IMG/VR virus record: IMGVR_UViG_3300033066_001253
Coordinates: 13,223-77,222 of that record
From: a virus
Lineage: Duplodnaviria > Heunggongvirae > Uroviricota > Caudoviricetes
Length of the DNA stretch: 64,000 nucleotides
Reading direction: 5' to 3' (one strand)
Shown: positions 7,532 through 61,695 of the stretch, one piece after another
How positions within the stretch are numbered: position 1 is the first letter of the stretch
How the letters are laid out: each line of letters opens with the position of its first letter
The notes under the pieces: generated by a model
The model's database searches: none
What the model was told of the DNA's origin: nothing
Seen by the model: the letters and a program-made list of their open reading frames with translations, nothing else
Translations under genes and position numbers: made by a program

Positions 7532-7702
7532 ATGAGAGAAAAAGGTTATTATTGGGTTCAATTTGAAGAAATAGGTAAATTTATCATTGCTGAATATTTA
7601 GGAACTGATTGGGGTTGGCAACTACATGGGGGAACTGAATATTATGAAGATAATGATTTTCATTTTATTGACAATGAAAGAATTTTATTTAAAAGTTTAT
7701 AA
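7532..7702 (+). CDS. hypothetical small protein
   Basis: 56-aa ORF, below the track threshold. It fills the gap between the 7013 and 7706 genes. Confidence 0.25.
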   Translation: MREKGYYWVQFEEIGKFIIAEYLGTDWGWQLHGGTEYYEDNDFHFIDNERILFKSL

Positions 7703-11676: not shown

Positions 11677-13457
11677 AGAAAAAAGCATTAGAATTTATTG
11701 TAGATTGTTTAATCCATAATGATATAAATACATTTTTTTTAGTTACGGGTGGTGCTATTGTTCCTACAATTGATTATATAGGAACCAATACTAATGCTAG
11801 ATATTATTGTTTCCAACATGAACAATCAGCAGCAATGGCTGCTGAATCATATTATAGAATAACAGGAAAATTAGGAGTAGTATTAAGCACTAGTGGTCCC
11901 GGTGCTCAAAATTTATTAAATGGAATATGTGGTTGTTGGTATGACTCAATCCCATGTTTATTTATCACTGGTCAAGTTAGTACTTATGAATCTATAAATT
12001 CAATAAAATCTAATCCTCGACAATTAGGTTTTCAAGAAATGCCCGTAGTTGAATCATTTAAACCTTTTACTAAATATATCAAACAAATAAATATTAATAC
12101 AATTAAAGATGATATCTATCAAGCTATTACATCTGCTTTAGAAGGACGCCCAGGACCTAGTTTATTAGATTTTCCAGTAGATGTTCAATTATCTGAAGTT
12201 GAGGATGATTTATTTAAAATTAAAAAACCTAAATTATCTATAAATAATAACATAATATATTCTATAGATTTACTAAAAAATAAACTTTCTAATTCAAAAA
12301 GACCATTATTGTTATTAGGACATGGTATTAGATTATCGGATGCTGTAAATGAAATTAAAGAATTAATCAATAAATTAAACATACCTTTTGTTGTATCTTG
12401 GGGAGGTTTTGATTTAATTGAACATTCTCATTCTAATTTTATAGGTACTATAGGAGTATATGGTAGTAGAGGTGGTAACTTCGCAATTCAAAATTGTGAC
12501 TTATTAATTTCAATAGGATCAAGATTAGACACTAGACAAACAGGAGGAGATTTAAAAACATTCTCTCGTAATTCTTATAAAGTAATGGTAGATATTGATT
12601 TAAATGAAATCAATAAAGGAAGAGGATTAAATATTGATCTACCTATTAATTGTGATGCCAAAATTTTTATTAATTCATGTTTAAATATTTTAGAACCTAT
12701 TAATATTGAAAAAGATTGGAAAAAACAATGTTTAGATTGGAGTAACCTTAATTTAGATAAACGAGAACCTAAAGAAAATTTATTAACATCTTATGAATTT
12801 TTAGAAGAATTAAATCATCACCTTGATGATGATTCTATAATAATCCCAGATGAAGGAGGACATTTGGTTTGGTCAATGCAATCATTAAAAACCAAACCAA
12901 ACCAAAGAATATTTTCTAATTTTGGTAACTCATCAATGGGATATAGTCTTCCAGCATCTATAGGGGCATCTATTGCTACCAACAAACAAGTAATTTGTAT
13001 AGATGGAGATGGTGGATTTCAAATGAATATTCAAGAATTACAAACTGTAAAACATTATAATTTACCTATTAAAATATTTATAATGAATAATAATTGTTAT
13101 GGTATTATTAAACAATTCCAAGATACATATTTTGATTCTAGATATATTGCTACTGAAGAACAAGATTATTCTGTTCCTAATTTTATTAAAATAGCAGAGG
13201 CTTATGGTATAAAATCAATAGAAGCTAATAAAAATAATTATAAGGAAGTTATTAATTTGGCTCTCAAAGAAAAAGATAGTATATTGGTGAATGTAATTAT
13301 AGATAAAGAACAAAAATTGATACCTAAATTAGAATTTGGAAATCCTTTGGAAGATATGTTTCCATATTTAGATGATGATTTAATAAAAGAAAACATGATT
13401 ATACCAATGATACCGAGAAAAGATAATACTCAAGGATGGGTAACTTTAAATAAATAA
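11670..13457 (+). CDS. thiamine-diphosphate-dependent enzyme, acetolactate-synthase-like (YerE-like C-C branching candidate)
   Basis: 595 aa. N-terminal TGGAIVPTIDY ... FQHEQSAAMAAESYYRITGK ... STSGPGAQNL is the ThDP pyrimidine-binding domain. IDGDGGFQMNIQEL ... MNNNCYG is the GDG-x24-NN ThDP motif. Confidence 0.85.
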   Translation: MVKKKALEFIVDCLIHNDINTFFLVTGGAIVPTIDYIGTNTNARYYCFQHEQSAAMAAESYYRITGKLGVVLSTSGPGAQNLLNGICGCWYDSIPCLFITGQVSTYESINSIKSNPRQLGFQEMPVVESFKPFTKYIKQININTIKDDIYQAITSALEGRPGPSLLDFPVDVQLSEVEDDLFKIKKPKLSINNNIIYSIDLLKNKLSNSKRPLLLLGHGIRLSDAVNEIKELINKLNIPFVVSWGGFDLIEHSHSNFIGTIGVYGSRGGNFAIQNCDLLISIGSRLDTRQTGGDLKTFSRNSYKVMVDIDLNEINKGRGLNIDLPINCDAKIFINSCLNILEPINIEKDWKKQCLDWSNLNLDKREPKENLLTSYEFLEELNHHLDDDSIIIPDEGGHLVWSMQSLKTKPNQRIFSNFGNSSMGYSLPASIGASIATNKQVICIDGDGGFQMNIQELQTVKHYNLPIKIFIMNNNCYGIIKQFQDTYFDSRYIATEEQDYSVPNFIKIAEAYGIKSIEANKNNYKEVINLALKEKDSILVNVIIDKEQKLIPKLEFGNPLEDMFPYLDDDLIKENMIIPMIPRKDNTQGWVTLNK

Positions 13458-13480: not shown

Positions 13481-14404
13481 ATGGCAGCAGATAGTAAAAC
13501 TAAAAAAACTATTTTAACATTAACAGGGAATAAAATAAAAAAAGAAAAAACAGTATTAGTTACTGCTTATGACTACCCCCAAGCAATTTTAGCAGACAGA
13601 GCAGGGGTAGATTGCATTTTGGTTGGTGATTCCTTAGGAATGACTCAACTAGGATATAAAACAACAATTCCTGTTACAATGGAAGATATGATTAGAAGTT
13701 GTGAAGCAGTTAGTAGAGGTTCCCAAAATGCTTTTTTGATTGGAGATATGCCTTATATGTCTTATCAACAATCAGATGAATTAGCTATTGAAAATGCAGG
13801 TAGATTTATAAGAGCAGGAATGGATATGGTAAAAGTAGAAGGAGCTATGGTTGAGCGTGTAAGAGCAATATCTAAAGCTGGGATTATGGTTATGAGTCAT
13901 TTAGGACTAACCCCTCATACCAGAGCAAAATTAGGTGGTTATAAAGTTCAAGGAAAAACAGCAGATCAAGCGGATATTATTTTACAACAAGCCTTAACCT
14001 TACAAGAAGCAGGTTGTTCAGCTTTATTATTAGAAGCTATGCCTAAAGAACCTGCAGAAATGATTGCTAAAAAATTATCCATTCCTGTTTATGGGATTGG
14101 TGGTGGAGATGGAGTTGATGGACAATTAGTAATATTTCATGATTTAACAGGTTTATTTTGGGAATTTAAATCTAAATTTGTTAAACGTTATTGTGAAGCT
14201 GGGAAGATTATTCAAGATGCTTTAGAACAATATGTTAATGAGGTTAAATCAGGAATATTTCCTTCCCCGGATAATTTTTATGAAATTAAAGAAGATGAAT
14301 TAGAAAAATTGTTGGGTGATGATAAATGGAAATATGAAAAAGATAGAGTAGAAAATAATACTACTCCCAATCATAGTGTTACACCAATTACTATTAATAA
14401 ATAA
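13481..14404 (+). CDS. PanB-like 3-methyl-2-oxobutanoate hydroxymethyltransferase family protein
   Basis: 307 aa. VTAYDYPQAILADRAGVDCILVGDSLGMTQLGY is near-identical to the PanB/KPHMT signature. It is not in a pantothenate context here. Confidence 0.7.
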   Translation: MAADSKTKKTILTLTGNKIKKEKTVLVTAYDYPQAILADRAGVDCILVGDSLGMTQLGYKTTIPVTMEDMIRSCEAVSRGSQNAFLIGDMPYMSYQQSDELAIENAGRFIRAGMDMVKVEGAMVERVRAISKAGIMVMSHLGLTPHTRAKLGGYKVQGKTADQADIILQQALTLQEAGCSALLLEAMPKEPAEMIAKKLSIPVYGIGGGDGVDGQLVIFHDLTGLFWEFKSKFVKRYCEAGKIIQDALEQYVNEVKSGIFPSPDNFYEIKEDELEKLLGDDKWKYEKDRVENNTTPNHSVTPITINK

Positions 14405-15207
14405 TGGATATTCTGATTACTGGAGGTAATGGTTATATTGCTAAAAGCATTTATAATAATTTTAGTAATAAATATAATATAACTAGAATTACCCGAAATG
14501 ATTTTGATTTATCTGATAAAAAAAGTACTGATAAATGGTTTAAGGGAAAATATTTTGATTTTGTAATCCATACTGCTATAAAGGGAGGAAGTAGATTAAA
14601 AGAAGATCCTTTAGATATAACTCATCAAAACGTTTCAATGTTTTATAATTTATTAAATAATAAAAACTGTTTTGGAAATTTAATAAATATAGGATCAGGA
14701 ATAGAAGATTCAAAACTTAATTCCCCCTATGTTTTAAGCAAAAAAATTATTAGTGATTTGATAAAACAATTACCTAATTTTTACAATATTAGAGTATTTG
14801 GTGTATTTGATGAAAATGAATTAAAAACTAGATTTATTAAAAATAATATTTTTAATTATATAAATCACCAACCACTAGAAATTTACCAAAACATAAAAAT
14901 GGATTTATTTTACATGAAAGATTTTATTAAAATCATATCTTATTATCTAGAATCAAATTATAATTTCGATCCACCTCAAAAACAATTAAATTGTTCTTAT
15001 CATAATAAATCAACTTTATTAGACACAGCAAAATTAATAAATAATTTAGGAACTCATAAATGTAATATAAAAATTCATAATCCTCAATATGGAGATGATT
15101 ATATAGGAATATGTAATACTCCTAAAATAGATAATGGGGATTTCATAATAGAATATTTAGGATTAGAATATGGGATTAAAGAAACATATGATATTTTAAA
15201 AAAATGA
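14404..15207 (+). CDS. NAD(P)-dependent sugar-nucleotide reductase/epimerase, RmlD-like
   Basis: 267 aa. N-terminal ILITGGNGYIA Rossmann motif; short SDR of the dTDP-4-dehydrorhamnose reductase type. Confidence 0.5.
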   Translation: MDILITGGNGYIAKSIYNNFSNKYNITRITRNDFDLSDKKSTDKWFKGKYFDFVIHTAIKGGSRLKEDPLDITHQNVSMFYNLLNNKNCFGNLINIGSGIEDSKLNSPYVLSKKIISDLIKQLPNFYNIRVFGVFDENELKTRFIKNNIFNYINHQPLEIYQNIKMDLFYMKDFIKIISYYLESNYNFDPPQKQLNCSYHNKSTLLDTAKLINNLGTHKCNIKIHNPQYGDDYIGICNTPKIDNGDFIIEYLGLEYGIKETYDILKK

Positions 15208-16148
15208 ATATTAAATTGATGTTACATATAATGCCTTGGGAAATAGATCAAGCATTGATGGTTGTTGACAAATTAAAAAAATCCACATATTATTTAGAAA
15301 ATGAAAATAAAATATTTATTAATACTGTTTTAAATTTATCCGATTCAATTATAGATTGGAATAAATCTAACATTCCAAAAGAATTTTTTATAAAAAAATA
15401 TAAAATAATATGTAATTTATTATCTTCTTATTATATTCATACTTCTCTCATATATGAAGGAGATAAAACATATGGTCATTTAGATTTACAAAAAACCTCA
15501 ATTTCAAAAGAAATAGATTATTATATTTACATATGTGCTGATATAGATTTTTCAGAACATTTATTATTCTATTTAATAGAATCAGCGAAACAAATCCATA
15601 ATGAATATTTTATCTTAACCCCTCAAATATTTAAAAGTTGGGATTCAAGTTGGGATATTTTAGTTAATGATAAATTCAAAAATATCCCTTATGAAAAATG
15701 TATTGATATAGATATTCATGAAATTAGATATCAATGTTTAGATTTAGATAATCCTAATGTTAAATCTATAGACCAATTTAAATTTGCTGGTTGGTTTGAT
15801 TTATATAATAAAAATTTTTATGAAAAATTAGTTCCTGTATTAGATGAATGGAATGGATATGGACCTTGGGATTTATATTCAATGAATATTTGTAATATAG
15901 CTAAACAATATGGAGTTGATGTGCAACAATATATTTTAGAAAATCAAATAACATGGTTTTCAGATGTAGGATGCCTTAGAAACTTTGAAGAATATGGGGG
16001 AGATGGACAGTTAAAAACATTATATAAAAATTTCCTAAATTTAAAACTTGGAAGACAAGAACAAAGATCTTATATTGATAAAAATTTAAATAAATATTTG
16101 AACCAATGGTTTGAATATGCTAAACAAAACCAAATAATAAATGTATAG
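15204..16148 (+). CDS. hypothetical protein in glycan cluster
   Basis: 314-aa ORF, no recognised motif. Embedded in the sugar operon. Confidence 0.4.
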
Positions 16149-16764
16149 CGAACCTGAAAAAAATGATCATCCTGATAGAATCAGAAAAGTTGGTAAATAT
16201 ACTTATGGTATAAATAATATTTGTATATATTATTGGGCTAATGGAAATTGGACAAAAGACGGAACAAAACTCCCAGAACCTGCATATCTTGAAATAGGAA
16301 ATTATTGTTCAATTTCAGGACATATTTTAATATACATGGGGGGTAATCACCATTATGAATGGGCATCTCAATATCCTTTTGGACATATTCACCAAAATGT
16401 TTTTAATAAATTTAATGGAGAAGGTCAACCATGGTCTAAAGGAAATGTGATTATAGGAAATGATGTTTGGATAGGAACATGTGCTACTATCCATAGTGGA
16501 GTAACAATTGGGGATGGAGCAGTAATAGCTTCTAATGCTGTAATAACAAAAGATGTAGAACCTTATTCTATAGTAGGAGGAAACCCTGCTAAATTTATTA
16601 AATATAGATTCCCAAAAGAAATTAGAGATAAATTATTAGAGTATAAATGGTGGGATTTGGATGATTATATTATAGATCATATTTCTCCACTATTATGTTC
16701 TGGTGATTTTGAAAATTTATTTAGAGTATTAGATGAAATTAAACAACAATTAAAAAACAATTAA
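16141..16764 (+). CDS. hexapeptide-repeat (left-handed beta-helix) acetyltransferase
   Basis: 207 aa. [46 protein letters not shown] shows canonical [LIV]G hexapeptide repeats of sugar/xenobiotic O-acetyltransferases. Confidence 0.8.
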
Positions 16765-16766
16765 AA

Positions 16767-17465
16767 ATGAAAACAATTACTACATATGAAGAGTTAATTG
16801 ATGATCTCTACAGTAATAATGTGACAATGGTTCACCCATCATTTATAAACTCAATACTAAACTTCTACCCAAACATATCCAAAGTAGAAGGAGATATTTT
16901 AGAATGTGGAGTCTGGAAAGGAGGAGTTTCAATATTCCTTAGTCATTTATTTAATGATAGAAATATTTGGGTGAGTGATTCATATCAAGGATTCCAACCT
17001 TTATCTCATGCTACTTATGAATATGATAAAGAAAGACATACTCCTGAATATACTCATTGTGCTAATGGTCCTATAGGAATTAGTTTAGAAGAAGTTAAAG
17101 CTAATTTTGAAAAATACGGTTTAGGAAATGAAGAAAGAATTAAGTTTTTAAAAGGATTTGTTAAAGATACTTTACCTACTTCAGGGATTGAAAAATTAGC
17201 TTTATTAAGAATTGATGTTGATGCCTATTCTGCTACTTTAGAAGTACTAAATGAAATGTATGATAAAGTTCAACCTGGAGGATATATTATTTTTGATGAC
17301 TCATGTCTATATGAGGTAATTGATGCTCTTAAAGTATTTTTTAAGCAAAAGAATTTAGAGGAATATATTTTTCACCCTCTCACAAATGAAAAATTAAATC
17401 TACATCTTAAGTATACTAACGATGACTCAGGATTTCCAACTGGGTGTTATATAATTAAACAATAA
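16767..17465 (+). CDS. TylF/MycF-family SAM-dependent O-methyltransferase
   Basis: 232 aa. GDILECGVWKGGVSIFL and RIDVDAYSATLEVL ... GGYIIFDD match the macrocin-O-methyltransferase fold. Confidence 0.65.
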   Translation: MKTITTYEELIDDLYSNNVTMVHPSFINSILNFYPNISKVEGDILECGVWKGGVSIFLSHLFNDRNIWVSDSYQGFQPLSHATYEYDKERHTPEYTHCANGPIGISLEEVKANFEKYGLGNEERIKFLKGFVKDTLPTSGIEKLALLRIDVDAYSATLEVLNEMYDKVQPGGYIIFDDSCLYEVIDALKVFFKQKNLEEYIFHPLTNEKLNLHLKYTNDDSGFPTGCYIIKQ

Positions 17466-18163
17466 TGAAACTTATCTACAGAATCTCAGACGCAGGTTAT
17501 AATAAAATAAAACCTAACTATATAAATAATGAAAATTGTTTAAGAAACGCTATAAAAATATTTCCGTGGTTAGAATATGATTGGTCTATCATAGCTGATA
17601 ATATATCTGAAGAAACAAGTAATATGATTCAAAAATATATTCCTAGAGATCATATTAATTATGTTTCTGTAGGACATGGAGCTGGTACATTTAATTTAGC
17701 TTTAGATGAAGCATTACAAAGTCCTGATGATGAAATAATTTATTTTTTAGAGAACGATTATTTACATAAACCAAACTCTGATAAAATATTACAAGAAGGA
17801 TTTGATCTAGGAGCATCTTTTGTGTCATTATATGATTGCCCAGATAAGTATTTAGATCCATCTGATGGAGGAAACCCATATTGTGAAGGTGGGGCTGAAG
17901 ATACTAGAGTATATTTAACTGATTCTTGTCATTGGAAAATAACAAATAGTACAACAATGACCTTTGCTTCTAAAGTGTCAACTTTAAAACAAACTGAGTC
18001 TATTCTTAGAAAATGGACTAATATGGGGCCTTATCCACAAGATTTTAAAATGTTTCTTGAATTAAGAGATAATAATAAATTATTAATTACACCAATGCCT
18101 GGGTATTCAACTCATGGAGAAACAGCTTGGTTATCACCTTTAACAAATTGGAGTGAAATATGA
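17465..18163 (+). CDS. hypothetical protein in glycan cluster
   Basis: 232-aa ORF, ATG overlaps upstream stop. Confidence 0.4.
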   Translation: MKLIYRISDAGYNKIKPNYINNENCLRNAIKIFPWLEYDWSIIADNISEETSNMIQKYIPRDHINYVSVGHGAGTFNLALDEALQSPDDEIIYFLENDYLHKPNSDKILQEGFDLGASFVSLYDCPDKYLDPSDGGNPYCEGGAEDTRVYLTDSCHWKITNSTTMTFASKVSTLKQTESILRKWTNMGPYPQDFKMFLELRDNNKLLITPMPGYSTHGETAWLSPLTNWSEI

Positions 18164-26418: not shown

Positions 26419-26493
26419 GGTCCTTTCGCCAAGTTGGTTAAGGCACTTCACTCATAATGAAGAGATACACAGGTTCAACTCCTGTAGGGACCA
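26419..26493 (+). tRNA. tRNA-Met (anticodon CAT; elongator Met or Ile-lysidine type)
   Basis: Manual cloverleaf. Acceptor GGTCCTT/AGGGACC (7 bp, one G-U). D-stem GCC/GGC. Anticodon stem CTTCA/TGAAG with loop CTCATAA. T-arm ACAGG-TTCAACT-CCTGT. Discriminator A; no encoded CCA. Confidence 0.7.
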
Positions 26494-46445: not shown

Positions 46446-48104
46446 ATGAGTAATAAAAAACAAAAAACATTGAATGATTTTACTCCTGAAATTCAAGCTA
46501 AAATACCAAAATATATTGAAAAATATACTAAAGGTATTTTTGATGGAGGTAGGTATAATAATTTTACCAAGGAAAAAGCAGAGAAATTTATTGATTGGAA
46601 TTATGAATTGTCTGGTTATAAAAAACCCATAGTTTTAGTAGCTGAAAATCCATATGAATCTCAAATATTTTTTAATTATATTAAAACCAATGAAAAAGTT
46701 TGGGCTCCTTTATTATATTTAGGTTATTGTTTGAAAAATAACATTCCTATACCTGATAATATATTAAAACAAGATAATAAACAGTTGCGCTCTCAGTTGG
46801 ACTCTCAGTTGCGCTCTCAGTTGCGCTCTCAGTTGGACTCTCAGTTGCGCTCTCAGTTGCGCTCTCAGTTGGACTCTCAGTTGTACTCTCAGTTGGACTC
46901 TCAGTTGGGCTCTCAGTTGTACTCTCAGTTGGACTCTCAGTTGGGCTCTCAGTTGTACTATCAGTTGTGCTCTCAGTTGGACTCTCAGTTGGACTCTCAG
47001 TTGGACTCTCAGTTGTGCTCTCAGTTGGACTCTCAGTTGCGCTCTCAGTTGGGCTCTCAGTTGGGCTCTCAGTTGGGCTCTCAGTTGTACTCTCAGTTGT
47101 GCTCTCAGTTGGACTCTCAGTTGCGCTCTCAGTTGGGCTCTCAGTTGGGCTCTCAGTTGCGCTCTCAGTTGTACTCTCAGTTGTACTCTCAGTTGTGCTC
47201 TCAGTTGGACTCTCAGTTGCGCTCTCAGTTGCGCTCTCAGTATAATGATGATTATTTATTTACAACCAACATATACTCCAATTCATTATTAGCTTGGTGG
47301 AAATTTATGAAGGATGAATTTAATTTAGAATCAGAAATAGGAATTCAATTAGATTCTTGGAATGATTTATATGAAGATTCCAATATTTATTCTGCTATTT
47401 TTAGTGAATTAGTTTGTATAGTTTCAAAATATCCTAAGAAAATAACAAGAAATCAAAATAATGATTTACATAATATCGAAGAAAGTTCAATTGATTGGAG
47501 TTATTCAACTGATTTGACTAAATTTGATTGTTTTTATATAAATGGAAGAAATGTTCCTTCAAAATATTTTGAATCTATTTCTAATAAAACTTTTTCAATG
47601 GATGATTTTACAAAAGAAACCAATGAAGAATATAAATCATCTTGTATAGTTTTAATGCAAGAAAAACATGGTGATGAATATTTAGTTAATTTCTTTAGAC
47701 AAAACCTAAAAGAAATAGATACATTTGTTGATAAAAAAGATGATAAATATCTTGAAGGTACTACCAAAGGAATGAATGTTGGGGTTTATACATTGTTTAA
47801 AGGAGAAATAAATGACGAAAAAATAGCGTATGTAAGATGTTATTGTCCATCAACAGACCGAATGTTTTTCTTAGGAGTTGATTCAATACATAAAACTCCC
47901 AAAGATGCAATTGCTTCTTTATATAGAATTCCAAACAAACTTAAAAATCATATTAAATCAATTTCAAGACAAGGTGAACGTTTTAGTACTATCTTAACAA
48001 GTGAAGGTAAAAAAATACTTAAAACCTTATCAAAAGAAGAAATAGGAAATACAACAGGATTAAAAGGAGATGAATATTTTAATTTAATAAAATATGAATT
48101 TTAA
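46446..48104 (+). CDS. hypothetical protein carrying a 38-unit (R/D/G/Y/C)SQL tetrapeptide repeat
   Basis: 552 aa. Non-repetitive N-terminal (about 113 aa) and C-terminal (about 290 aa) domains flank the repeat. Confidence 0.5.
   Translation: MSNKKQKTLNDFTPEIQAKIPKYIEKYTKGIFDGGRYNNFTKEKAEKFIDWNYELSGYKKPIVLVAENPYESQIFFNYIKTNEKVWAPLLYLGYCLKNNIPIPDNILKQDNKQLRSQLDSQLRSQLRSQLDSQLRSQLRSQLDSQLYSQLDSQLGSQLYSQLDSQLGSQLYYQLCSQLDSQLDSQLDSQLCSQLDSQLRSQLGSQLGSQLGSQLYSQLCSQLDSQLRSQLGSQLGSQLRSQLYSQLYSQLCSQLDSQLRSQLRSQYNDDYLFTTNIYSNSLLAWWKFMKDEFNLESEIGIQLDSWNDLYEDSNIYSAIFSELVCIVSKYPKKITRNQNNDLHNIEESSIDWSYSTDLTKFDCFYINGRNVPSKYFESISNKTFSMDDFTKETNEEYKSSCIVLMQEKHGDEYLVNFFRQNLKEIDTFVDKKDDKYLEGTTKGMNVGVYTLFKGEINDEKIAYVRCYCPSTDRMFFLGVDSIHKTPKDAIASLYRIPNKLKNHIKSISRQGERFSTILTSEGKKILKTLSKEEIGNTTGLKGDEYFNLIKYEF
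46783..47240 (+). repeat. 12-bp perfect-length tandem repeat (NNC TCT CAG TTG) x about 38, in-frame within the CDS
   Basis: Units TCTCAGTTG plus a variable codon CGC/GAC/GGC/TAC/TGC (once TAT). Visible directly as repeated gctctcagttg/gactctcagttg strings. Confidence 0.9.
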
Positions 48105-54985: not shown

Positions 54986-55366
54986 ATGGAAATTAAATTA
55001 ACACCTAAGGAATCAGAAGATTACTTCTACAATGCTTTATGTAACGGTTTAGGTTATATTAGTGGATATGGTTTAGCAGTTGATTATGATACAAAAGAAT
55101 ATCAAGCAGCTAAAAAATCATTAGGAGGATCACCATGCTACGAAGATGTGTTTATGGAAATGCTTCGAAAAGGAGGTAAATTAACATTAGTTGATGAAGA
55201 ATGTGATGGAGAATATACACGTTCAATCACATTAAAAGAAATACATGAACGAGTTCAAAAAACAGATTCTGACCACTTATTAGCTATGGTTAATGAAAAT
55301 GATGATGCAACGACAGCAGATGTTATTCTCCAAACAGTGTTTTTTGAGGAAATAATATTTGGCTAG
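54986..55366 (+). CDS. hypothetical protein
   Basis: 126 aa. Confidence 0.35.
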   Translation: MEIKLTPKESEDYFYNALCNGLGYISGYGLAVDYDTKEYQAAKKSLGGSPCYEDVFMEMLRKGGKLTLVDEECDGEYTRSITLKEIHERVQKTDSDHLLAMVNENDDATTADVILQTVFFEEIIFG

Positions 55367-55400
55367 ATTATTAATAAAACATTTCGTATAGTTACCTCAA
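55358..55400 (+). promoter_or_regulatory. conserved phage promoter
   Basis: TTGGCTAGA ... CGTATAGTTA (55385-55394) ... ATG 55411. Confidence 0.45.
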
Positions 55401-55410
55401 ATAAAGAGAT

Positions 55411-55698
55411 ATGAAAAATATTAAAACATACAACCAAGTCAAAGTAGGTGATATAGCAATGGAACACCCCCATGCAGGTGGGTTCTATGATCATGAACTA
55501 GGTAAAATAGTATGGAAAGGTACTGCAGATGAATTGAGAAAATCAAAATGGGTTGATTTAATAATGGATTGGGAAACCGAAAAAGAATATATTGATGACT
55601 ATGATTTAGTAATAGTTAAGATGGAAGGTGATTTCCCTGATAATATATTATTCAGTTATGATAACGATCCTTGTAGTTGTGTAGTATTTGAAAAATAA
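55411..55698 (+). CDS. hypothetical protein
   Basis: 95 aa. Confidence 0.35.
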   Translation: MKNIKTYNQVKVGDIAMEHPHAGGFYDHELGKIVWKGTADELRKSKWVDLIMDWETEKEYIDDYDLVIVKMEGDFPDNILFSYDNDPCSCVVFEK

Positions 55699-55756
55699 TT
55701 TGGCTAGGTTTAATAAATAATAATTCGTATAGTTAAATATATTAAAAATTAAGGTT

Positions 55757-56053
55757 ATGTCAAAATATAAGGAATTAAGGTTAAATCCACCCAAATTAAC
55801 AATTAAAAAGGATGCTCGTGAAGTAATTTTTACAACAGTATCATGCATGTGTGATAACATTCACTATATAACATTTAAAAAGAATGAAAGTGGTGATTTT
55901 AAAATGGATGGTGGAGGATTTGCACTAAGCAATTGGCAAATGAAACACCCTAAACACGATATTGAATGGGAAGCAGATGCAGGAGAATGGCAAGGTGTAA
56001 TAGCTATGATAAATTCAGGTACTAAAGCTGTATCAGAGGTAAAAAGCAGATAA
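55757..56053 (+). CDS. hypothetical protein
   Basis: 98 aa. Confidence 0.35.
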   Translation: MSKYKELRLNPPKLTIKKDAREVIFTTVSCMCDNIHYITFKKNESGDFKMDGGGFALSNWQMKHPKHDIEWEADAGEWQGVIAMINSGTKAVSEVKSR

Positions 56054-56059
56054 TATAAG

Positions 56060-56100
56060 TCGAGGTTTAATAAATAACAATTCGTATAGTTAAATATATT
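56060..56100 (+). promoter_or_regulatory. conserved phage promoter
   Basis: TCGAGG 56060-56065 ... CGTATAGTTA 56083-56092 ... AAAGGTTATG at 56114. Near-identical to the copy at 55700-55756. Confidence 0.5.
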
Positions 56101-56113
56101 AAAAATAAAGGTT

Positions 56114-56410
56114 ATGTCTAAAACAAAACAACCAAAATTCATTCAAGTATCACCTAACGAAGTTAAATTCGAATACAAGGGATATAAGTTCTTATTAATT
56201 GAACAAGACAGAGGTGTGTACTCGGCAGGTAGAGCAGTCCAGTTATACCAAACAGATGGATTGGATAAAAAACATATTAAGGAAATGGGTTGGACTAAAA
56301 ATGATAATTATCGTGGGATGGAATCATCTGATGCTCATTATAAATCAAGATTAACAACAATGGATGGTTGTAAGAGTATAGCCCAAGATTATTTAGATAA
56401 ACTGTTATAA
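56114..56410 (+). CDS. hypothetical protein
   Basis: 98 aa. Confidence 0.35.
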   Translation: MSKTKQPKFIQVSPNEVKFEYKGYKFLLIEQDRGVYSAGRAVQLYQTDGLDKKHIKEMGWTKNDNYRGMESSDAHYKSRLTTMDGCKSIAQDYLDKLL

Positions 56411-56463
56411 TATAAGTCGAGGTTTATAATAAATCGATTCGTATGTTTACCAAAATTAAGGAT

Positions 56464-56748
56464 ATGATAAAATTAACAAAATTATTTAAACAACACAATG
56501 GGGGGGAATTTGGTTTAGGTTGTGCTCAAATCCATTCAAACCATTATGAATGTTCATTAGAACACATATTAAATATGGTTAATGAATTAAAAAAAGATTT
56601 CCCAAATATTAAGGATGAAGATATTAAAATTCAAAAATATGGTGGAAACCGAATAAAAGGAATAACATTTGTTGAAGTATTTTTTACTACTAAAGTAAAA
56701 ATACCTGAAGGTTATCAAGAAATAACTCAATTAGAATATATTTTATAA
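56464..56748 (+). CDS. hypothetical protein
   Basis: Track ORF 56443 trimmed: its first ATG lies inside the CGTATGTTTACC promoter element. Real start AAGGATATG at 56464. Confidence 0.35.
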   Translation: MIKLTKLFKQHNGGEFGLGCAQIHSNHYECSLEHILNMVNELKKDFPNIKDEDIKIQKYGGNRIKGITFVEVFFTTKVKIPEGYQEITQLEYIL

Positions 56749-56821
56749 ATTAATAGGGTATAATGTAAATAGTGGTAAGACATAAACATGGTTCCGGTAA
56801 GGGATGATGGTTTACAAAATG

Positions 56822-56882
56822 GATGTGGTGACACAAGCCGAGGTAGGTTCGAATCCTACCATACCTTATTATTTTTTAAATC
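56822..56882 (+). ncRNA. tRNA-like element (canonical T-arm GTAGG-TTCGAAT-CCTAC, upstream cloverleaf not resolved)
   Basis: GGTAGGTTCGAATCCTACC at 56853-56871 is a textbook T-stem-loop inside an about 190-nt ORF-free gap. I could not pair a complete acceptor stem by eye. Confidence 0.3.
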
Positions 56883-56965
56883 TGAAGCAGAGAAATTAAT
56901 AATAATCCAGGTCGTGGTTACTCAACAATCAAATCGTATAATTACATTATAATAAAACAAATAAT

Positions 56966-57148
56966 ATGGTATCTCAATCCCAACATATATTACTAAAAAT
57001 AGATCAATTATTACAAAATAAAGAATTTATCAGGGAAACAGAATTGGATGATATGGAACCCAACCAACGATTTATATTTATGTGTAAAAATTATAATGAT
57101 GAAGATGTGGATCAAATGTATTATGAGGTGTTTGGGTTAGAGTATTAA
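56966..57148 (+). CDS. hypothetical protein
   Basis: 60 aa. Confidence 0.3.
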   Translation: MVSQSQHILLKIDQLLQNKEFIRETELDDMEPNQRFIFMCKNYNDEDVDQMYYEVFGLEY

Positions 57149-57190
57149 TCGAGGCTAATCAAATAACGTTTCGTATGTTTAACTTATAAG
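57149..57190 (+). promoter_or_regulatory. conserved phage promoter
   Basis: TCGAGG 57149-57154 ... CGTATGTTTAACTTATAAGATTAATAA ... AAGGTTATG at 57217. Confidence 0.5.
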
Positions 57191-57216
57191 ATTAATAATT
57201 AAATAAAATTAAGGTT

Positions 57217-57399
57217 ATGGATATTCAAGAAGAACAATTACGAGCAATGGTTAAATTATTAAGAACAACCATTACCAAAATGGAAAATATAATTGGAACT
57301 AATTGTCAAATAACAAGTATTGATGTAGGTGGGATGATTAGTTCATTACAAGATGACCTACATGAGGTAGAAATTGAGTTACATGACACTGTTAATTAA
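57217..57399 (+). CDS. hypothetical protein
   Basis: 60 aa. Confidence 0.3.
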   Translation: MDIQEEQLRAMVKLLRTTITKMENIIGTNCQITSIDVGGMISSLQDDLHEVEIELHDTVN

Positions 57400-57961
57400 A
57401 GTATAGCAAACCATAGTGATGTTAGGTGGGTGTGGTTTTGTGTAAGGTTGTGTGTCGGAGTTCTTAAAGAGTGTATATGGCCTGGGGTGAGGTGTGGGGA
57501 ACGGGTAGGGTCGGGAAATGAAACATTTCATGGCGCTGTTCCTCCTCCTCGTATTCGACAAATATATACTTTCTATTCCATGCACCGCATCCCCCCTATT
57601 CCATGCATCGCATCTTCTTATTTCGTGGTTATTTAGTTTAATTTTCGTATAGTTAATCAACTTAAAAATAAATAGTTATGATGGAATTTAAATTTTACAC
57701 ATGGTTCTACACTAGTGAAATTACTGGATTAGAATATCAGTTTGGAATGAATTAATAAACACCCTAATGACAAATTTAGAACCACACCCACTCTATTTCA
57801 CATCTGTAAATCCAGGTGAGGTGTTTTGGAAATGTTATGGGATCGAAATTATAGTTGTGTGTTTGAATTAAATATAGTTTCTATAAATAATCGTTGTTAT
57901 TGAGATATAGATTCGTATGTTTAAAATAAGAAATTAATTATAAACGTTAATATAAGTGGTT

Positions 57962-58165
57962 ATGAAAAAATCCCAAATACTCAAAAAATTAGGTGAATTC
58001 CTAGATCCTATAGAAATTGGATTCCTACAAATAATTACTAATGGTAATCCAGGTGGAATTGAAATATGTTTTGCTATTTGTAGAATATTAAATGTTGTAC
58101 CTTCTCACCATGAAAAAGAGGTATCGGGATTATTAAAACAATTATTAAAAATCCATTTTAAATGA
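57962..58165 (+). CDS. hypothetical protein
   Basis: Track ORF 57956 (GTG) trimmed to the ATG at 57962. Confidence 0.35.
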   Translation: MKKSQILKKLGEFLDPIEIGFLQIITNGNPGGIEICFAICRILNVVPSHHEKEVSGLLKQLLKIHFK

Positions 58166-58354
58166 TTCGTTGCTCAACTAAATAAAATTCGTATAGTTAA
58201 GCAATAAAGAAATTTAACAAAACGTTGTTTGAAATATTAGTCTCGACCTCCACATCAAAATAAAGACAAATTAAGAGTCGTTGCCTATTAAAAAACAAAT
58301 CGTATAGTTAAAGTATAAATAAAATAAATAATTAACAATTAAAAAATCAAGGTT

Positions 58355-58735
58355 ATGAAAAAAGAAACAAAAAACACAGGAAAAAAAGCAAGTAACAAAG
58401 TTGCTAAAGTTGAAGTAGTTGAAACACCAGTTGTTGAGACTCCAATCCAAGAAACAGTTGTAGATACTACAACAAATCCAGTAAAAGTAGAAACACGTGG
58501 TCGTAAAGTTGATCCAAACAGCCCTCGCCAAATCCGTTTAGCTAAAATGGCTGAAAATAAAGCGAAAGGTGTTGATGGAAGAGGTCGTCATACAGATCCT
58601 AACAGTGCCCGTCAAGCTAAATTAGCAGCATTTGAAGCTAAAAAGGCAGCAGGTATTGAAATAAAAAGAGGACGTCCAGCTGGAAGTGGAAAGAAAGTTG
58701 AAGTGGCTCCTGTTGAGGAAGCAAAAGGAGAATAA
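58355..58735 (+). CDS. Lys/Ala-rich basic protein with internal repeat (possible DNA-binding/histone-like)
   Basis: 126 aa. Internal repeat GRKVDPNSPRQ(I/A)RLA / GRHTDPNSARQAKLA; K/A/E-rich. Followed by a strong terminator. Confidence 0.4.
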   Translation: MKKETKNTGKKASNKVAKVEVVETPVVETPIQETVVDTTTNPVKVETRGRKVDPNSPRQIRLAKMAENKAKGVDGRGRHTDPNSARQAKLAAFEAKKAAGIEIKRGRPAGSGKKVEVAPVEEAKGE

Positions 58736-58745
58736 TAACAAATGA

Positions 58746-58779
58746 CCCCCACCCAAATATAGTGGTGGGGGTTTATTTT
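58746..58779 (+). terminator. rho-independent terminator
   Basis: CCCCCACC-CAAATATAGT-GGTGGGGG hairpin (8 GC-rich bp) followed by TTTATTTT. Confidence 0.75.
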
Positions 58780-58850
58780 AAAAAATATCGAGGTTATAAG
58801 TATTAGGTTTCGTATAGTTATATTATAATAAAAATTAATAACACAACATT

Positions 58851-59030
58851 ATGGAACAATTAGTGGTAAATAAAATTATTGGTGGTTTAATGGGTATTAA
58901 GAATGGTACCAAACAACCTAAAGACGTAGCTCCATGGTTAAACCGATTAAAAGGTATTAATGAGGGGTTATATGAAGATTATTTAGTTAAATATAAGAAG
59001 TTAACACAAGGTGAGGAGGAGACTGTATGA
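58851..59030 (+). CDS. hypothetical small protein
   Basis: 59-aa ORF below the track threshold. Preceded by a CGTATAGTTATATTATAATAAAAATTAATAA promoter copy; stop overlaps the ATG at 59027. Confidence 0.3.
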   Translation: MEQLVVNKIIGGLMGIKNGTKQPKDVAPWLNRLKGINEGLYEDYLVKYKKLTQGEEETV

Positions 59031-59215
59031 TAATTAAACGTAGTGTTGATACAGATAATAGTGGAGTTAAATGGTGGGCTGTATCTCATTCTCAAGATGG
59101 TACACCTGATCAAATATCATGTTTTAATTGGTTTCGTTCTAAAGCCGAAGCAGATAAATATTATTCTACATTACCAGGTGCCAAGGAGGTAGTTAGTAAG
59201 AGTCGTTGTTTATAG
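59027..59215 (+). CDS. hypothetical protein
   Basis: 62 aa. Confidence 0.3.
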   Translation: MIIKRSVDTDNSGVKWWAVSHSQDGTPDQISCFNWFRSKAEADKYYSTLPGAKEVVSKSRCL

Positions 59216-59277
59216 ATTTATGTTTCGTATAGTTAAACATAATAAGAAATTAATATAAATAATTAAAATATAATATT

Positions 59278-59559
59278 ATGAAATATCAAATCAAAAGTAT
59301 ATTTGAACAAATTGCAGAGCAAGTATTCAAAATGAGTGATGTAGTTAAAGCAAAACAATTCATAGCTGAATTTGTAGTTGAAAAAGGTATTAATGATAAA
59401 GACAAACAACTGATATTAAATAATATCCAGGGTTGTAAAAATATAGTTGCCCTCCAACGTTATATTTGTAACTCATTGTTAAAATATGAGGGTATGAGTG
59501 TAGGTAAACCAGGTAAGGTTGAGGTGAGTGAACCAAGTGTTGATGTAGTGGTTGAATAA
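59278..59559 (+). CDS. hypothetical protein
   Basis: 93 aa. Confidence 0.35.
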   Translation: MKYQIKSIFEQIAEQVFKMSDVVKAKQFIAEFVVEKGINDKDKQLILNNIQGCKNIVALQRYICNSLLKYEGMSVGKPGKVEVSEPSVDVVVE

Positions 59560-59642
59560 TTATAATGTCTTTGTTTTATTAAATATGTTTCGTATATTTA
59601 ACTTATAAGATTAATAATTAATAATAATTAAAAATAAATAAC

Positions 59643-59810
59643 ATGAACGATTTTGAAAAAATAAAACAACATTTATCTGAATTGGTAAAATTAGTTGGTA
59701 AAAACACTGAAAATGCTGATAATATTGATTTATATGATATGTGTGATGGTTTAGAACAAATGTTAGATATATTTGAAAGTATTGAAGGTTTTGAAAAATA
59801 TGACGAATAA
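59643..59810 (+). CDS. hypothetical small protein
   Basis: 55-aa ORF below threshold; promoter CGTATATTTAACTTATAAGATTAATAA upstream. Its stop abuts copy 1 of the 24-bp direct repeat. Confidence 0.3.
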   Translation: MNDFEKIKQHLSELVKLVGKNTENADNIDLYDMCDGLEQMLDIFESIEGFEKYDE

Positions 59811-59905
59811 TTTCATGGTGTAGTTAGTTGAATAGTTATAATATCGTTGCTACTTAAAATAACTCTCGTATATTTAACTCAAATAAATAATTAAAATATA
59901 ATAAT

Positions 59906-60169
59906 ATGAAAAATTTAATTCCAATAACAGTTGAAGGTTTGAAACAATTAAATAAATTATTGAATGATTATTATTTAAAAGATTTAAATGAAAGATTATT
60001 CAATGATGTAGATACAGATTGTTTGAATCATTGTATAAGTAGTGATATAAATGGAAATAAAGTATTTAATGAATATGAACGTTTAATTACGAATAAATTC
60101 ATTCTTGAACAAATAGATATAATAAATTGGAATTATTGTAATTTAAGACAATTAGAATTGACTTTATAG
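59906..60169 (+). CDS. hypothetical protein flanked by 24-bp direct repeats
   Basis: 87 aa. Confidence 0.35.
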   Translation: MKNLIPITVEGLKQLNKLLNDYYLKDLNERLFNDVDTDCLNHCISSDINGNKVFNEYERLITNKFILEQIDIINWNYCNLRQLELTL

Positions 60170-60779
60170 AAATTTCATGGTGTAGTTAGTTGAACAAGAG
60201 TAGGCGTTCCGACAAGTCGGGATGCCTTTCTCTTTCCTTTTCTTTCTTCCCGACATGTCTTCTAGAAGAAGAAGTCCCTAGGACTTGACGCGTACGGCGG
60301 TATACCGTATGGGGGGAGTATTGTGTGGGATACCACGCGCGCTGATGTCCGTCGGGCGGGGCGCCGGTGTTCCGGAAGGCCCCGACGACCTAACAACGTA
60401 CGTATAACATATAAGGATCGATTTGTATATCCCTATATCTAACCCAAACCACTCAATAACCCAAACCGAACAACCACTCCCAAACCCCTTTAAAAAAATA
60501 AGTTTGTCTTGGTTCTTCTAAAAAATTATCGTATGTTTCCACTATAGGGTTTTTGGAATAATAATCGCAAATCTCAAAAAGTAAGAGAATGACAAAAATA
60601 TAGTTTATAAAAAAGAATATATACAAATATAAATAATAAATAACTATGGAAAACAAAAACCATATTTTTATATAGATGGAGAAACAGGTAAACAAAAATA
60701 TTTACTTGGTGCTTGGAGAGTTGGAGTACATGAAAATTGGACAATAGGTGAAATTGAATTAAATGACTAAATATAAATT

Positions 60780-60986
60780 ATGAATTGGATATCAGTTACA
60801 AATAAATTACCAACATGTTGGTCTCAACATGGGAAAGACTATGGAAGTGGTTATTTACTTGGTTATACTAAATATAATGAAGTAGTAATAACTCAATTAT
60901 GGAATAATAAAGATTGGGAAAATGAAGATGAGGAAGATGATTATATCACTCATTGGATGAATTTACCTTTACCACCACAAACATAA
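60780..60986 (+). CDS. hypothetical protein
   Basis: 68 aa. Confidence 0.35.
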   Translation: MNWISVTNKLPTCWSQHGKDYGSGYLLGYTKYNEVVITQLWNNKDWENEDEEDDYITHWMNLPLPPQT

Positions 60987-61035
60987 AACTTCGAACCTGT
61001 TCCATATTTATATCCGAACCTAAAGCCTCAATATT

Positions 61036-61695
61036 TTGGATCGTATATATACATTCTCAGATCTGGAAAATATAAATAGGTTTATATCATCCCTCAAACG
61101 TAAAGCCAAAAAATATAATATTAGGCTTGAACTCAACAACGATAAATTTGTTACTATTTCAGATGAAATAAAATGTAGCGGTTATTTTGAGGAAAAATTC
61201 AAACATCATCCCGGCTTGTTAACTACTGCTACAGGTAAACCTATTAATATGTGGTTACCTGTTTTGGTACATGAATCCTGTCATATGGATCAATGGGAGG
61301 AAAAAACACCTATATGGAAAGAATATCAATCTTCTGATACTGCTATTATTGATATGTGGTTAGCTGGAAAACGCGTAAATAGTGAGAAAGTATATAGAGC
61401 TTTAGATATAAGTAGGGATATGGAGTTAGATTGTGAACGTAGGTCAGTTAATAAAATAATTAAGTTTAATTTACCCATTGATATAACTGAATATATACAA
61501 AAAGCCAACTGTTATATATTTTTTTATAATTATCTTAAGATAAGTAAGAAATGGAGTTTACCTGGTAATAGTCCTTATAATAATCCAAATATATATAAGA
61601 AAGTGAGTGGAGATTGGTATGATGATTATAGTGTAACTCCTAAAGAAATCGATCGTTTATTTAAAAAATATAAAATAGGATATGATAAAATCTAA
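61036..61695 (+). CDS. hypothetical HExxH-motif protein (possible zinc metallopeptidase)
   Basis: Contains VLVHESCHMDQWEE (HExxH + E). Track start is TTG at 61036; first in-frame ATG is at 61249 and a CGTATATATACA promoter-like element lies at 61040-61051, so the true start is uncertain. Confidence 0.35.
   Translation: MDRIYTFSDLENINRFISSLKRKAKKYNIRLELNNDKFVTISDEIKCSGYFEEKFKHHPGLLTTATGKPINMWLPVLVHESCHMDQWEEKTPIWKEYQSSDTAIIDMWLAGKRVNSEKVYRALDISRDMELDCERRSVNKIIKFNLPIDITEYIQKANCYIFFYNYLKISKKWSLPGNSPYNNPNIYKKVSGDWYDDYSVTPKEIDRLFKKYKIGYDKI

Follow-up and report, generated by a model that had tools for sequence, protein, structure and literature searches.

A conserved non-coding GC-rich island beside exchangeable early-gene cassettes in phages of the Flavobacteriia-infecting type

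How does a phage genome of about 26% guanine plus cytosine (GC) come to carry, behind a small gene bracketed by two exact 24-nucleotide (nt) repeats, a short GC-rich island packed with palindromes, and what might such an island do? We addressed this question in a 64,000-nt stretch of a tailed phage (Caudoviricetes; IMG/VR record IMGVR_UViG_3300033066_001253, positions 13,223 to 77,222), here called the window, for which an earlier note had listed a replication origin, a partition or packaging site, a structured non-coding RNA and a selfish insertion as candidates. We find that the repeats delimit small-gene cassettes that differ between near-identical contigs, and that the island core is a member of an apparently undescribed, widespread non-coding family in Flavobacteria-type phages. 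A composite explanation, with swappable cassettes next to an island that serves as a cis-acting DNA site, has in our view about an even chance of being correct.

The 24-mer, AATTTCATGGTGTAGTTAGTTGAA, is present in two exact plus-strand copies at 59809-59832 and 60171-60194; the exact pair is as described before, with the second copy one base higher than the 60170-60193 originally given. No further copy with up to three mismatches exists in the window, and the number of such exact duplications expected by chance is zero (100 shuffles). Between the copies we recover the promoter and 87-amino-acid (aa) open reading frame (ORF) already pointed out there, the ORF (geneC) being preceded by a repeated promoter-like motif (Table 1). 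GeneC has no Pfam or PHROG family, and its sole database match is geneC itself; the idea that it is a travelling cassette with homologues elsewhere was dropped, as none was found and the gene is an ORFan.

A haplotype comparison of metagenome-derived contigs whose flanks match the window at 95-100% identity reveals four arrangements between geneA and the island. The window and contig L198 share the order geneA, geneB, 24-mer, geneC, 24-mer, island (A-B-C). L199 is without geneB and reads geneA, geneC, 24-mer, island (A-C); L200 has the same geneA-geneC-24-mer order and stops in a second promoter C, before any island sequence. In L001 and L008, geneA is followed by an unrelated gene D of 112-118 aa, a 24-mer with one mismatch and the island (A-D), and in L002 a geneA with a different C-terminus is followed by the 24-mer and the island (A' alone). 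The proposal that the 24-mers bracket an exchangeable one-gene cassette thus holds: in some close relatives it is missing, and in others a different gene replaces it or the neighbouring cassette is absent. The additional upstream copy of the 24-mer is restricted to geneB-bearing arrangements. Since the relatives carry a single 24-mer beside the island (exact in L002 and L199, one mismatch in L001 and L008), the 24-mer is the constant left edge of the island block.

Every breakpoint between these arrangements lies within the 24-mer or its homologue at the end of geneA, that is, within 15-40 nt of repeated junction sequence. The 3' half of the 24-mer has its homologue in the last ~17 nt of geneA (59541-59557, TGATGTAGTGGTTGAAT), and the segment covering the geneA 3' end and the following promoter (59551-59615) is 75% identical to 24-mer copy 1 with promoter C (59827-59891; repeat family D4), the homologous junctions reading ..GATGTAGTGGTTGAATAATTATAATGTCTTTG.. 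on the geneA side and ..GGTGTAGTTAGTTGAATAGTTATAATATCGTTG.. on the side of copy 1 and promoter C. In L199 and L200, the geneA 3' end (..GATGTAGTAGTTGAATAG..) is fused to promoter C exactly inside this junction homology, and promoter C itself is identical across L198, L199 and L200. In the 2171-nt contig L200, geneC, 24-mer and promoter C are read again, with the last 55 nt duplicating an internal segment; such a junction could come from the 362-bp unit being duplicated in tandem or excised as a circle, or be an assembly artefact.

We infer from these breakpoints that the cassettes move by homologous recombination. The segment 59560-60194 would be the hyperplastic part of the early-gene array of a large, AT-rich phage of the Flavobacteriia-infecting type, in which a promoter and one small gene would form the cassette unit, and units would be gained, lost and replaced through short repeats at gene-end/promoter junctions. 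The recombining sequences would comprise the 24-mer, its homologue at the geneA 3' end (GTAGTnGTTGAATAG) and the first promoter bases. The exact 24-mer duplication may then be the footprint of one such event, recombination of both copies would remove or duplicate the geneC unit, and cassettes may move via circular intermediates. The island would be the fixed landmark against which cassettes insert.

This junction is embedded in a longer array. From ~55 kb on, the window carries small ORFs, each behind a repeated promoter-like unit of the form TCG(T/A)(T/G)G, ~20 nt, TTCGTAT(A/G)(G/T)TTAA. At least 12 such units of 50-65 nt (TCGTTG/TCGAGG, ~20 nt, TTCGTATAGTTAA) are found in 55350-60555, one per small ORF, and repeat families D1-D5 have 4-7 copies each within 55-60.6 kb, which suggests a dense set of individually promoted early genes. 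In form, the unit resembles Bacteroidetes promoters of the TTG / TAnnTTTG kind.

The arrangement resembles the promoter-early stem-loop (PeSL) cassettes that are shuffled as modules in T4-type phages (Arbiol et al. 2010, PMC2839356; Comeau et al. 2014, PMC4122927), and by analogy the mechanism may be PeSL-like, in a different phage group and with a different repeat. In both systems, small early genes, most of them ORFans, stand in arrays, each behind a repeated motif that contains a promoter, and both show insertions, deletions and replacements between near-identical phages with breakpoints inside that motif; the putative L200 junction would add a circular or tandem recombination product of neighbouring repeats. 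However, a PeSL joins a sigma-70 promoter to a terminator stem-loop, whereas the repeat described here consists of a 24-nt gene-end sequence and the opening bases of a promoter in the Bacteroidetes style. A G+C-rich stem-loop is found neither in the 24-mer nor in the promoter units, the sole terminator-like hairpin being at the island edge, and the window phage is not T4-type.

The island itself begins just behind the second 24-mer. The GC jump reported for this position is real, 57% over 60201-60400 (64% in the best 100 nt and 71% in the best 80 nt), and makes the island the most GC-rich non-coding stretch of the window. Its palindrome density is likewise confirmed: 60195-60445 holds 13 six-base palindromes compared with 4.8 +/- 2.0 in dinucleotide shuffles (13 reached in 1/1000) and five eight-base palindromes compared with 1.3 (11/1000 reach this), and 8 of the window's 50 GC-rich six-base palindromes lie in the island. 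The five CCGAC/GTCGG motifs are also present (1.05 expected; 1/1000 shuffles). What had been called iteron-like CCGAC consists mostly of hairpin arms, four of the five forming two hairpins (60202-60227 and 60350-60387), and the motif repeated family-wide is GTAC-based. The CA-rich tract with its duplicated motif is found as described, and indeed no ORF fits: only ORFs of 30-44 aa cross the island, and none of them is conserved as an ORF among diverged family members.

Comparison with relatives identifies the central part of the island as the conserved element. In L008, the core is preserved nearly base for base, while the homologue of the neighbouring 219-aa protein is just 69% identical and, unlike the core, the CA-rich tail and the flanks have diverged. 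More distant relatives (55-59% protein identity) carry a GC-rich island in the same place, which BLAST is unable to align but which has blocks in common with that of the window; in two of them, L009 and L012, geneA homologues lie directly upstream. A degenerate pattern for the most conserved block, used to scan IMG/VR and metagenomes, returned 37 IMG/VR stretches (~30 true members) and at least 120 metagenome stretches, and the family is present on more than 100 metagenomic contigs, a lower bound. With a profile hidden Markov model of the core, we obtained 126 significant matches and 81-102 distinct cores among the matches listed, never more than one copy per locus; the single match in the 64 kb of the window is 60285-60440. 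Members share the block order TTG..(G)CGTACGTACG, an AT-rich stretch, ATACC(C)ACGCGCGTTGnTGTCCATATAGCG, AAAGG, TTTATAGATCG.A.AC, CATCGAT(n)TGTATATACTTATAT and a C-rich, G-poor tract.

The loci also share flanking gene families that are co-oriented with the element. Downstream neighbours are a 124-aa protein, a DUF932 protein, a T5orf172 protein and an HD phosphohydrolase. Upstream, some clades (18 of 52 loci) encode a small, basic protein with 2-6 AT-hook-like repeats of the form (K/R)GR(P/K/H)x(3-6)SxRQ, here called the GRP-repeat protein, which in the window occupies 58355-58735 on the plus strand and in several clades often lies 130-220 nt from the island. It has no match in Pfam, PDB or cultured phages. 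An obligate partnership with the element was considered and set aside, the protein being upstream in those 18 loci only.

Outside phage contigs the element is almost absent. In a scan of 185,579 species genomes (one per bacterial or archaeal species), we found two copies only. One is on a mis-binned 1-kb contig. The second is in a Polaribacter metagenome-assembled genome (L192, OX044355.1), where a prophage adjoins the 3' end of glmS, has genes for a 606-aa serine recombinase (serine integrase) and a 223-aa resolvase-like protein, and carries the element in a non-coding gap of 830 nt. This prophage copy is diverged, and the gap contains two 17-nt direct repeats, GACCA(T/A)TACGGTATAA. With the region and with two other members of the family as queries, BLASTN found no match among 50,697 phage records, the element is not in Flavobacterium phage vB_FspM_immuto, and a full-text literature search for the box sequence found no paper.

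These distributions bear directly on the suggestion that the island arose by insertion of a small selfish GC-rich element, or of a fragment captured from the host, with duplication of the 24-mer. Its foreign composition and the direct repeat nearby would fit such an origin, but the 24-mers bracket the AT-rich geneC unit, not the island, and in relatives a single 24-mer marks the left edge of the island; the extra copy goes with the AT-rich gene cassettes. Unlike miniature inverted-repeat transposable elements or insertion sequences, the island is present as one copy per locus, has no terminal inverted repeats and keeps a syntenic position across distant relatives, and no bacterial homologue was found in the genome scan outside the prophage, the mis-binned contig aside. 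Both the selfish-insertion and the host-fragment ideas are therefore contradicted, and we consider them hardly credible.

We then asked whether the family acts as RNA. Rfam 15 at gathering score finds nothing at the island (its sole match in the window is a tRNA at 26419), even E <= 10 yields just two chance-level matches over 60100-60650, and ARAGORN finds nothing at the island. Single-sequence folding of the two strands is unconvincing (z = -2.0 and -1.2). RNAalifold gives no consensus structure for 26 sequences or per clade on either strand, and mutual information with average product correction over 81 sequences reveals no helix-like stacks of covarying pairs. Mean base-pair probabilities are at most 0.13, save for a small AU hairpin in the invariant AT-rich search box (0.23-0.26), which offers no sequence variation to test. 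The family thus shows no detectable RNA structure or covariation.

The only recurrent hairpin, which closes a conserved TGnTGTCCATATA loop, looked compensatory by eye and failed the shuffle, slide and strand tests: 55.8% of its cells are paired compared with 57.7% in shuffles, the partner slid by +/-2 columns pairs equally well, the hairpin is equally stable on the opposite strand, and G:U pairs are in no clear excess over A:C (71 vs 51). A pseudoknot between the TGnTGTCCATATA loop and the segment after AAAGG was also rejected (cognate 11.3 vs non-cognate 10.7), as was a short RNA ended by a terminator behind the element, such terminators being seen in few loci and not consistently. Terminator-like hairpins peak just upstream of the core across the family. 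On the plus strand of 59200-61100 in the window, the 60202-60227 hairpin is the only one found by a terminator scan, and its stem is kept in L001 with a G:U to G:C change and two additional loop bases.

An RNA role, either as a leader or boundary element that ends the early transcription unit or as a free-standing small RNA, is in our estimate unlikely, though it deserves to be taken seriously. In such a scheme, a protein-bound hairpin and a C-rich, G-poor, rut-like Rho-loading tract would regulate termination or antitermination much as lambda nutR-tR1 does. As with that immediate-early/delayed-early site of boxA, boxB and rut, the element stands at the end of an early unit, with a hairpin beside conserved linear boxes and then a C-rich, G-poor tract. 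The element is always co-oriented with the upstream genes and directly follows a terminator-like hairpin, GC-rich hairpins (including a clade-specific one of 38 nt) occur in a 26% GC genome, the C>G tract is downstream throughout the family, and the hairpin region folds better than shuffles (mean z = -0.9). However, the negative structural tests above, including the lack of strand asymmetry, argue against an RNA role: unlike for nutR-tR1, a conserved RNA hairpin could not be demonstrated, the pairing potential is accounted for by period-2 alternation, and no consistent terminator follows. The genes next to the element are convergent in at least 11 loci, where read-through into them would be antisense.

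The period-2 behaviour in the slide test pointed to purine-pyrimidine alternation as the conserved property. Alternating steps make up 66% of the core compared with 50% in shuffles and 49-53% in the flanks, and 75-82% in the part of the core from CGTACG to ACGCGCG. The longest alternating run averages 15.8 nt over the family compared with 7.6 nt in shuffles (95th percentile 11). This explains the palindrome density, because alternating sequences are enriched in self-complementary words. TACGTA and CGTACG, the latter a classic Z-form hexamer, occur in ~60% of family members. GTAC reaches 2.6 per 100 nt against a background of ~0.2, a more than 10-fold enrichment located in the 5' half of the element and the 200 nt upstream, where several clades also repeat the words CGTACTT/GTACCTT. 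The ~60-nt tract after the core is strand-asymmetric (C 0.22-0.24, G 0.09-0.12).

This signature suggests that the element acts as double-stranded or transiently unwound DNA and not as a folded RNA. GTAC repeats, alternating runs, an AT-rich box and a strand-asymmetric C-rich tract would together form the layout of a protein-nucleated cis-site, and long alternating purine-pyrimidine runs would be prone to structural transitions under supercoiling. The earlier list of candidates is narrowed accordingly by the family data: a conserved, single-copy cis element stands, with a DNA site favoured over a structured RNA and packaging weakened. As the specific function we prefer, tentatively and at somewhat less than even probability within the composite explanation, a phage replication origin or another protein-nucleated DNA site; a unique site for transcription or topology control at the early/late boundary would come as a close second.

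We place an origin-type site first because the element is single-copy, with repeats, inverted repeats, an AT-rich box and a strand-asymmetric tract, because it occurs both in virulent-type large phages and in a prophage, and because immuto, a phage of 160 kb, has an unrelated, classical iteron region in the same neighbourhood. Immuto is the closest cultured relative, as judged from two conserved downstream proteins (HD phosphohydrolase, 51%; DUF932 protein, 41% identity), and has a similar gene order, with sugar-metabolism genes and then small genes. Its early-gene neighbourhood contains two ACCCGT(T/C) arrays of ~10 and ~14 repeats at 11-12 nt spacing, which flank a 330-nt purine-rich spacer (L201 10300-10950; NC_055915.1 ~66,300-66,950). 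By its sequence this region looks like an iteron-type origin or a partition-like site; parts of it are annotated as tiny hypothetical ORFs. With iteron origins (lambda ori, P1 oriR, the immuto ACCCGT arrays) the island shares the single-copy intergenic location, a short repeated motif (GTAC family-wide, CCGAC five times in the window), inverted repeats, and a GC-rich part beside an AT-rich box and a strand-asymmetric tract. It differs from them in that no regular iteron spacing was seen, no adjacent initiator gene and no DnaA-box cluster were found at the island, and its dominant property, the alternating runs, is not usual in origins.

Several observations weigh against an origin-type site and the composite around it. 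No initiator gene is consistently adjacent, the nearest recurrent gene being that of the GRP-repeat protein, and the GC skew does not inflect at the island. In the copy carried by the window, GTAC motifs are few and the longest alternating run, 11 nt, falls on the 95th percentile of shuffles, with 61% alternating steps in the core. The invariance of the box ATCGAT..GTATAT..TATAT is partly imposed because this box served as the search pattern. Recent mosaic exchange, and not selection, could account for the near-perfect match of the core in the window and L008, because geneA is also ~95% identical. An RNA function without a conserved fold, such as a leader or a Rho-loading site, could also apply. 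On the cassette side, a multi-k assembler may have created the L200 junction artificially at a 24-nt repeat.

The location of the element raises the alternative of a unique promoter/operator for the downstream middle/late block, with the CGTACG palindrome as operator; host RNA polymerase would read it with the help of a phage factor or a phage sigma factor. We regard this as rather unlikely. The island does lie at the boundary between small early genes and the block of DUF932, T5orf172 and HD phosphohydrolase genes, after which baseplate genes follow. By eye, many members show TTG, ~17-21 nt and a TATAAT-like sequence around the palindrome, and sigma-factor genes are present on some contigs. 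However, the conserved box does not recur above chance elsewhere in the 64-kb window or in L009 and is therefore not a promoter class. The box also does not resemble the promoter motif repeated in the window, where an ordinary promoter unit comes after the island in any case (60490-60554), and in several loci convergent genes come after the element.

The element could also be a new kind of phage genome landmark. It would then be a single-copy, supercoiling-sensitive tract, prone to Z-DNA or cruciform formation and carrying GTAC repeats, which could serve as an origin, topological insulator or recombination hotspot and seed the cassette region; we consider this decidedly unlikely. If true, it would explain the variable genes and assembly breaks just upstream of the element across Flavobacteriia phages. 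As in known Z-DNA- or cruciform-prone tracts, the family has runs of 11-22 nt of strict alternation built from CG, TA and CA/TG steps, and the family mean is above the ~12 nt at which alternating tracts are considered Z-prone; a transition in vivo is a candidate only. We know of no natural phage element that is defined by alternating purine-pyrimidine tracts.

The assembly breaks, together with the single copy, are what would point to a packaging (pac) site or a physical genome end, an explanation that we find very improbable. Contig ends lie within 600 nt upstream of the core in 30 cases compared with 19 expected over all contigs, and among contigs >10 kb in 8 compared with ~0.8. However, the element is internal in the longest contigs (97/180 kb, 72/183 kb, 65/124 kb) and inside an integrated prophage, the distances to contig ends scatter from 1 to 465 nt with several contigs cut within the element, and the start of contig L031 is internal sequence in its sister contig L016. 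Breaks are expected here anyway, both where a conserved block adjoins strain-variable cassettes and at a GC extreme.

Table 1. Features of the cassette region and the island (window coordinates)
Feature	Position	Strand	Description
geneA	59278..59559	+	93 aa; conserved gene 5' of the variable cassettes
Promoter B	59560..59642	+	Promoter-like repeat unit before geneB; TCTTTG..N..TTCGTATATTTAAC; repeat families D2/D4
geneB	59643..59810	+	55 aa; variable cassette gene; missing from L199, L200, L001, L002 and L008
24-mer copy 1	59809..59832	+	After the geneB stop codon; continues into promoter C
Promoter C	59833..59905	+	Promoter-like repeat unit before geneC; families D2, D4 and D5
geneC	59906..60169	+	87 aa; ORFan cassette gene; bracketed with promoter C by both 24-mers
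24-mer copy 2	60171..60194	+	Constant left edge of the island block throughout this clade's relatives
Intrinsic-terminator-like hairpin and pyrimidine tract	60202..60249	+	11 pairs (60202-60227); tract 60228-60249
Clade-specific GC-rich spacer	60250..60284		Palindromes GACATGTC, CTTCTAGAAG and CCTAGG; conserved within the window clade only
Conserved family core	60285..60440	+	Family profile, nhmmer E = 4.9e-23
Core block	60285-60309		TTG + CGTACG/GGTATACC
Core block	60330-60350		ATACCACGCGCGCTGATGTCC
Clade-specific 38-nt hairpin	60350-60387		Inserted between conserved core blocks
Core block	60395-60408		ACGTACGTAT
Core box	60417-60439		ATCGATTTGTATATCCCTATATC
CA-rich, nearly G-free tract	60440..60488	+	AACCCAAACC x2
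Next promoter-like repeat unit	60490..60560	+	D4 copy 60490-60554; begins the downstream gene block

The promoter-like unit that follows the island ends with a conserved box, CACTATAGGG(T/A)TTTTGG (60540-60556), and is a module separate from the island. The box is kept in L009 and L012 (59% protein identity) and diverged in L011, where two genes lie between box and island. We note that it is identical to positions -7 to +3 of the T7 class III promoter (window 60540-60556; L009 1464-1482; L012). Further downstream, the frame 60647-60770 encodes ..KPYFYIDGETGKQKYLLGAWRVGVHENWTIGEIELND* without an in-frame start; ahead of it, across an A-rich run, a 9-codon ORF begins with ATG in a different frame. 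Possibly, a small gene has been frameshifted or has decayed here.

Other GC-rich stretches of these genomes are distinct from the family. A second non-coding island at 57400-57620 (47-56% GC) was rejected as a paralogue, having no similarity to the element and no profile match. In it, a G-rich arm that includes GGGG..GGGG..GGG..GGG..GGG precedes a C-rich arm, and the whole folds into a single long, imperfect hairpin (z = -1.5) with no Rfam match. L001 has this stretch at 100% identity and L002 at 83-89%. The GC-rich segment 46780-47240 (51-52% GC) is a coding repeat unrelated to the island: ~38 tandem 12-bp units encode SQL(R/D/G/Y/C) repeats within a 552-aa ORF (46446-48104) without a family match. 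In 20 kb of L011, a 180-kb relative from the European Nucleotide Archive, six or more additional non-coding patches are GC-rich (50-56% GC; 7546-7650, 13786-17605), and none of them matches the family profile.

The window at large carries all genes over ~62 kb on the plus strand and encodes glycosyltransferases, a thiamine pyrophosphate (TPP) enzyme, an aminotransferase, an RNA ligase, an exonuclease, an HNH endonuclease and one tRNA. A further segment, at 56770-56880, is tRNA-like: its T-arm (GGTAGGTTCGAATCCTACC) is perfect and an acceptor-like end matches. Neither ARAGORN nor Rfam calls it, and it may be a degenerate or interrupted tRNA. The start of contig L003 (IMGVR_UViG_3300020050_014673) is a fold-back in which the N-terminal part of the homologue of the 219-aa gene lies head-to-head with its own downstream region, probably an assembly or amplification chimera.

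In sum, the cassettes provide a clean natural example, outside the T4 group, of junction repeats swapping single early genes, with four alleles of one cassette site recovered from metagenomes. The island family, with more than 100 members from marine and freshwater samples, marks a fixed genome point in abundant and mostly uncultured Flavobacteriia phages, and is apparently undescribed in Rfam, cultured-phage records and the searchable literature. A cis-acting intergenic site is a known kind of phage element; the signature of this island is unusual. Should the purine-pyrimidine alternation itself be under selection, the family would represent a rare DNA-structural signal conserved in a virus. 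If the element is an origin or master control site, it would give a handle on replication and gene timing in phages without genetics, provide a marker for binning and orienting contigs, and explain the recurrent assembly break.

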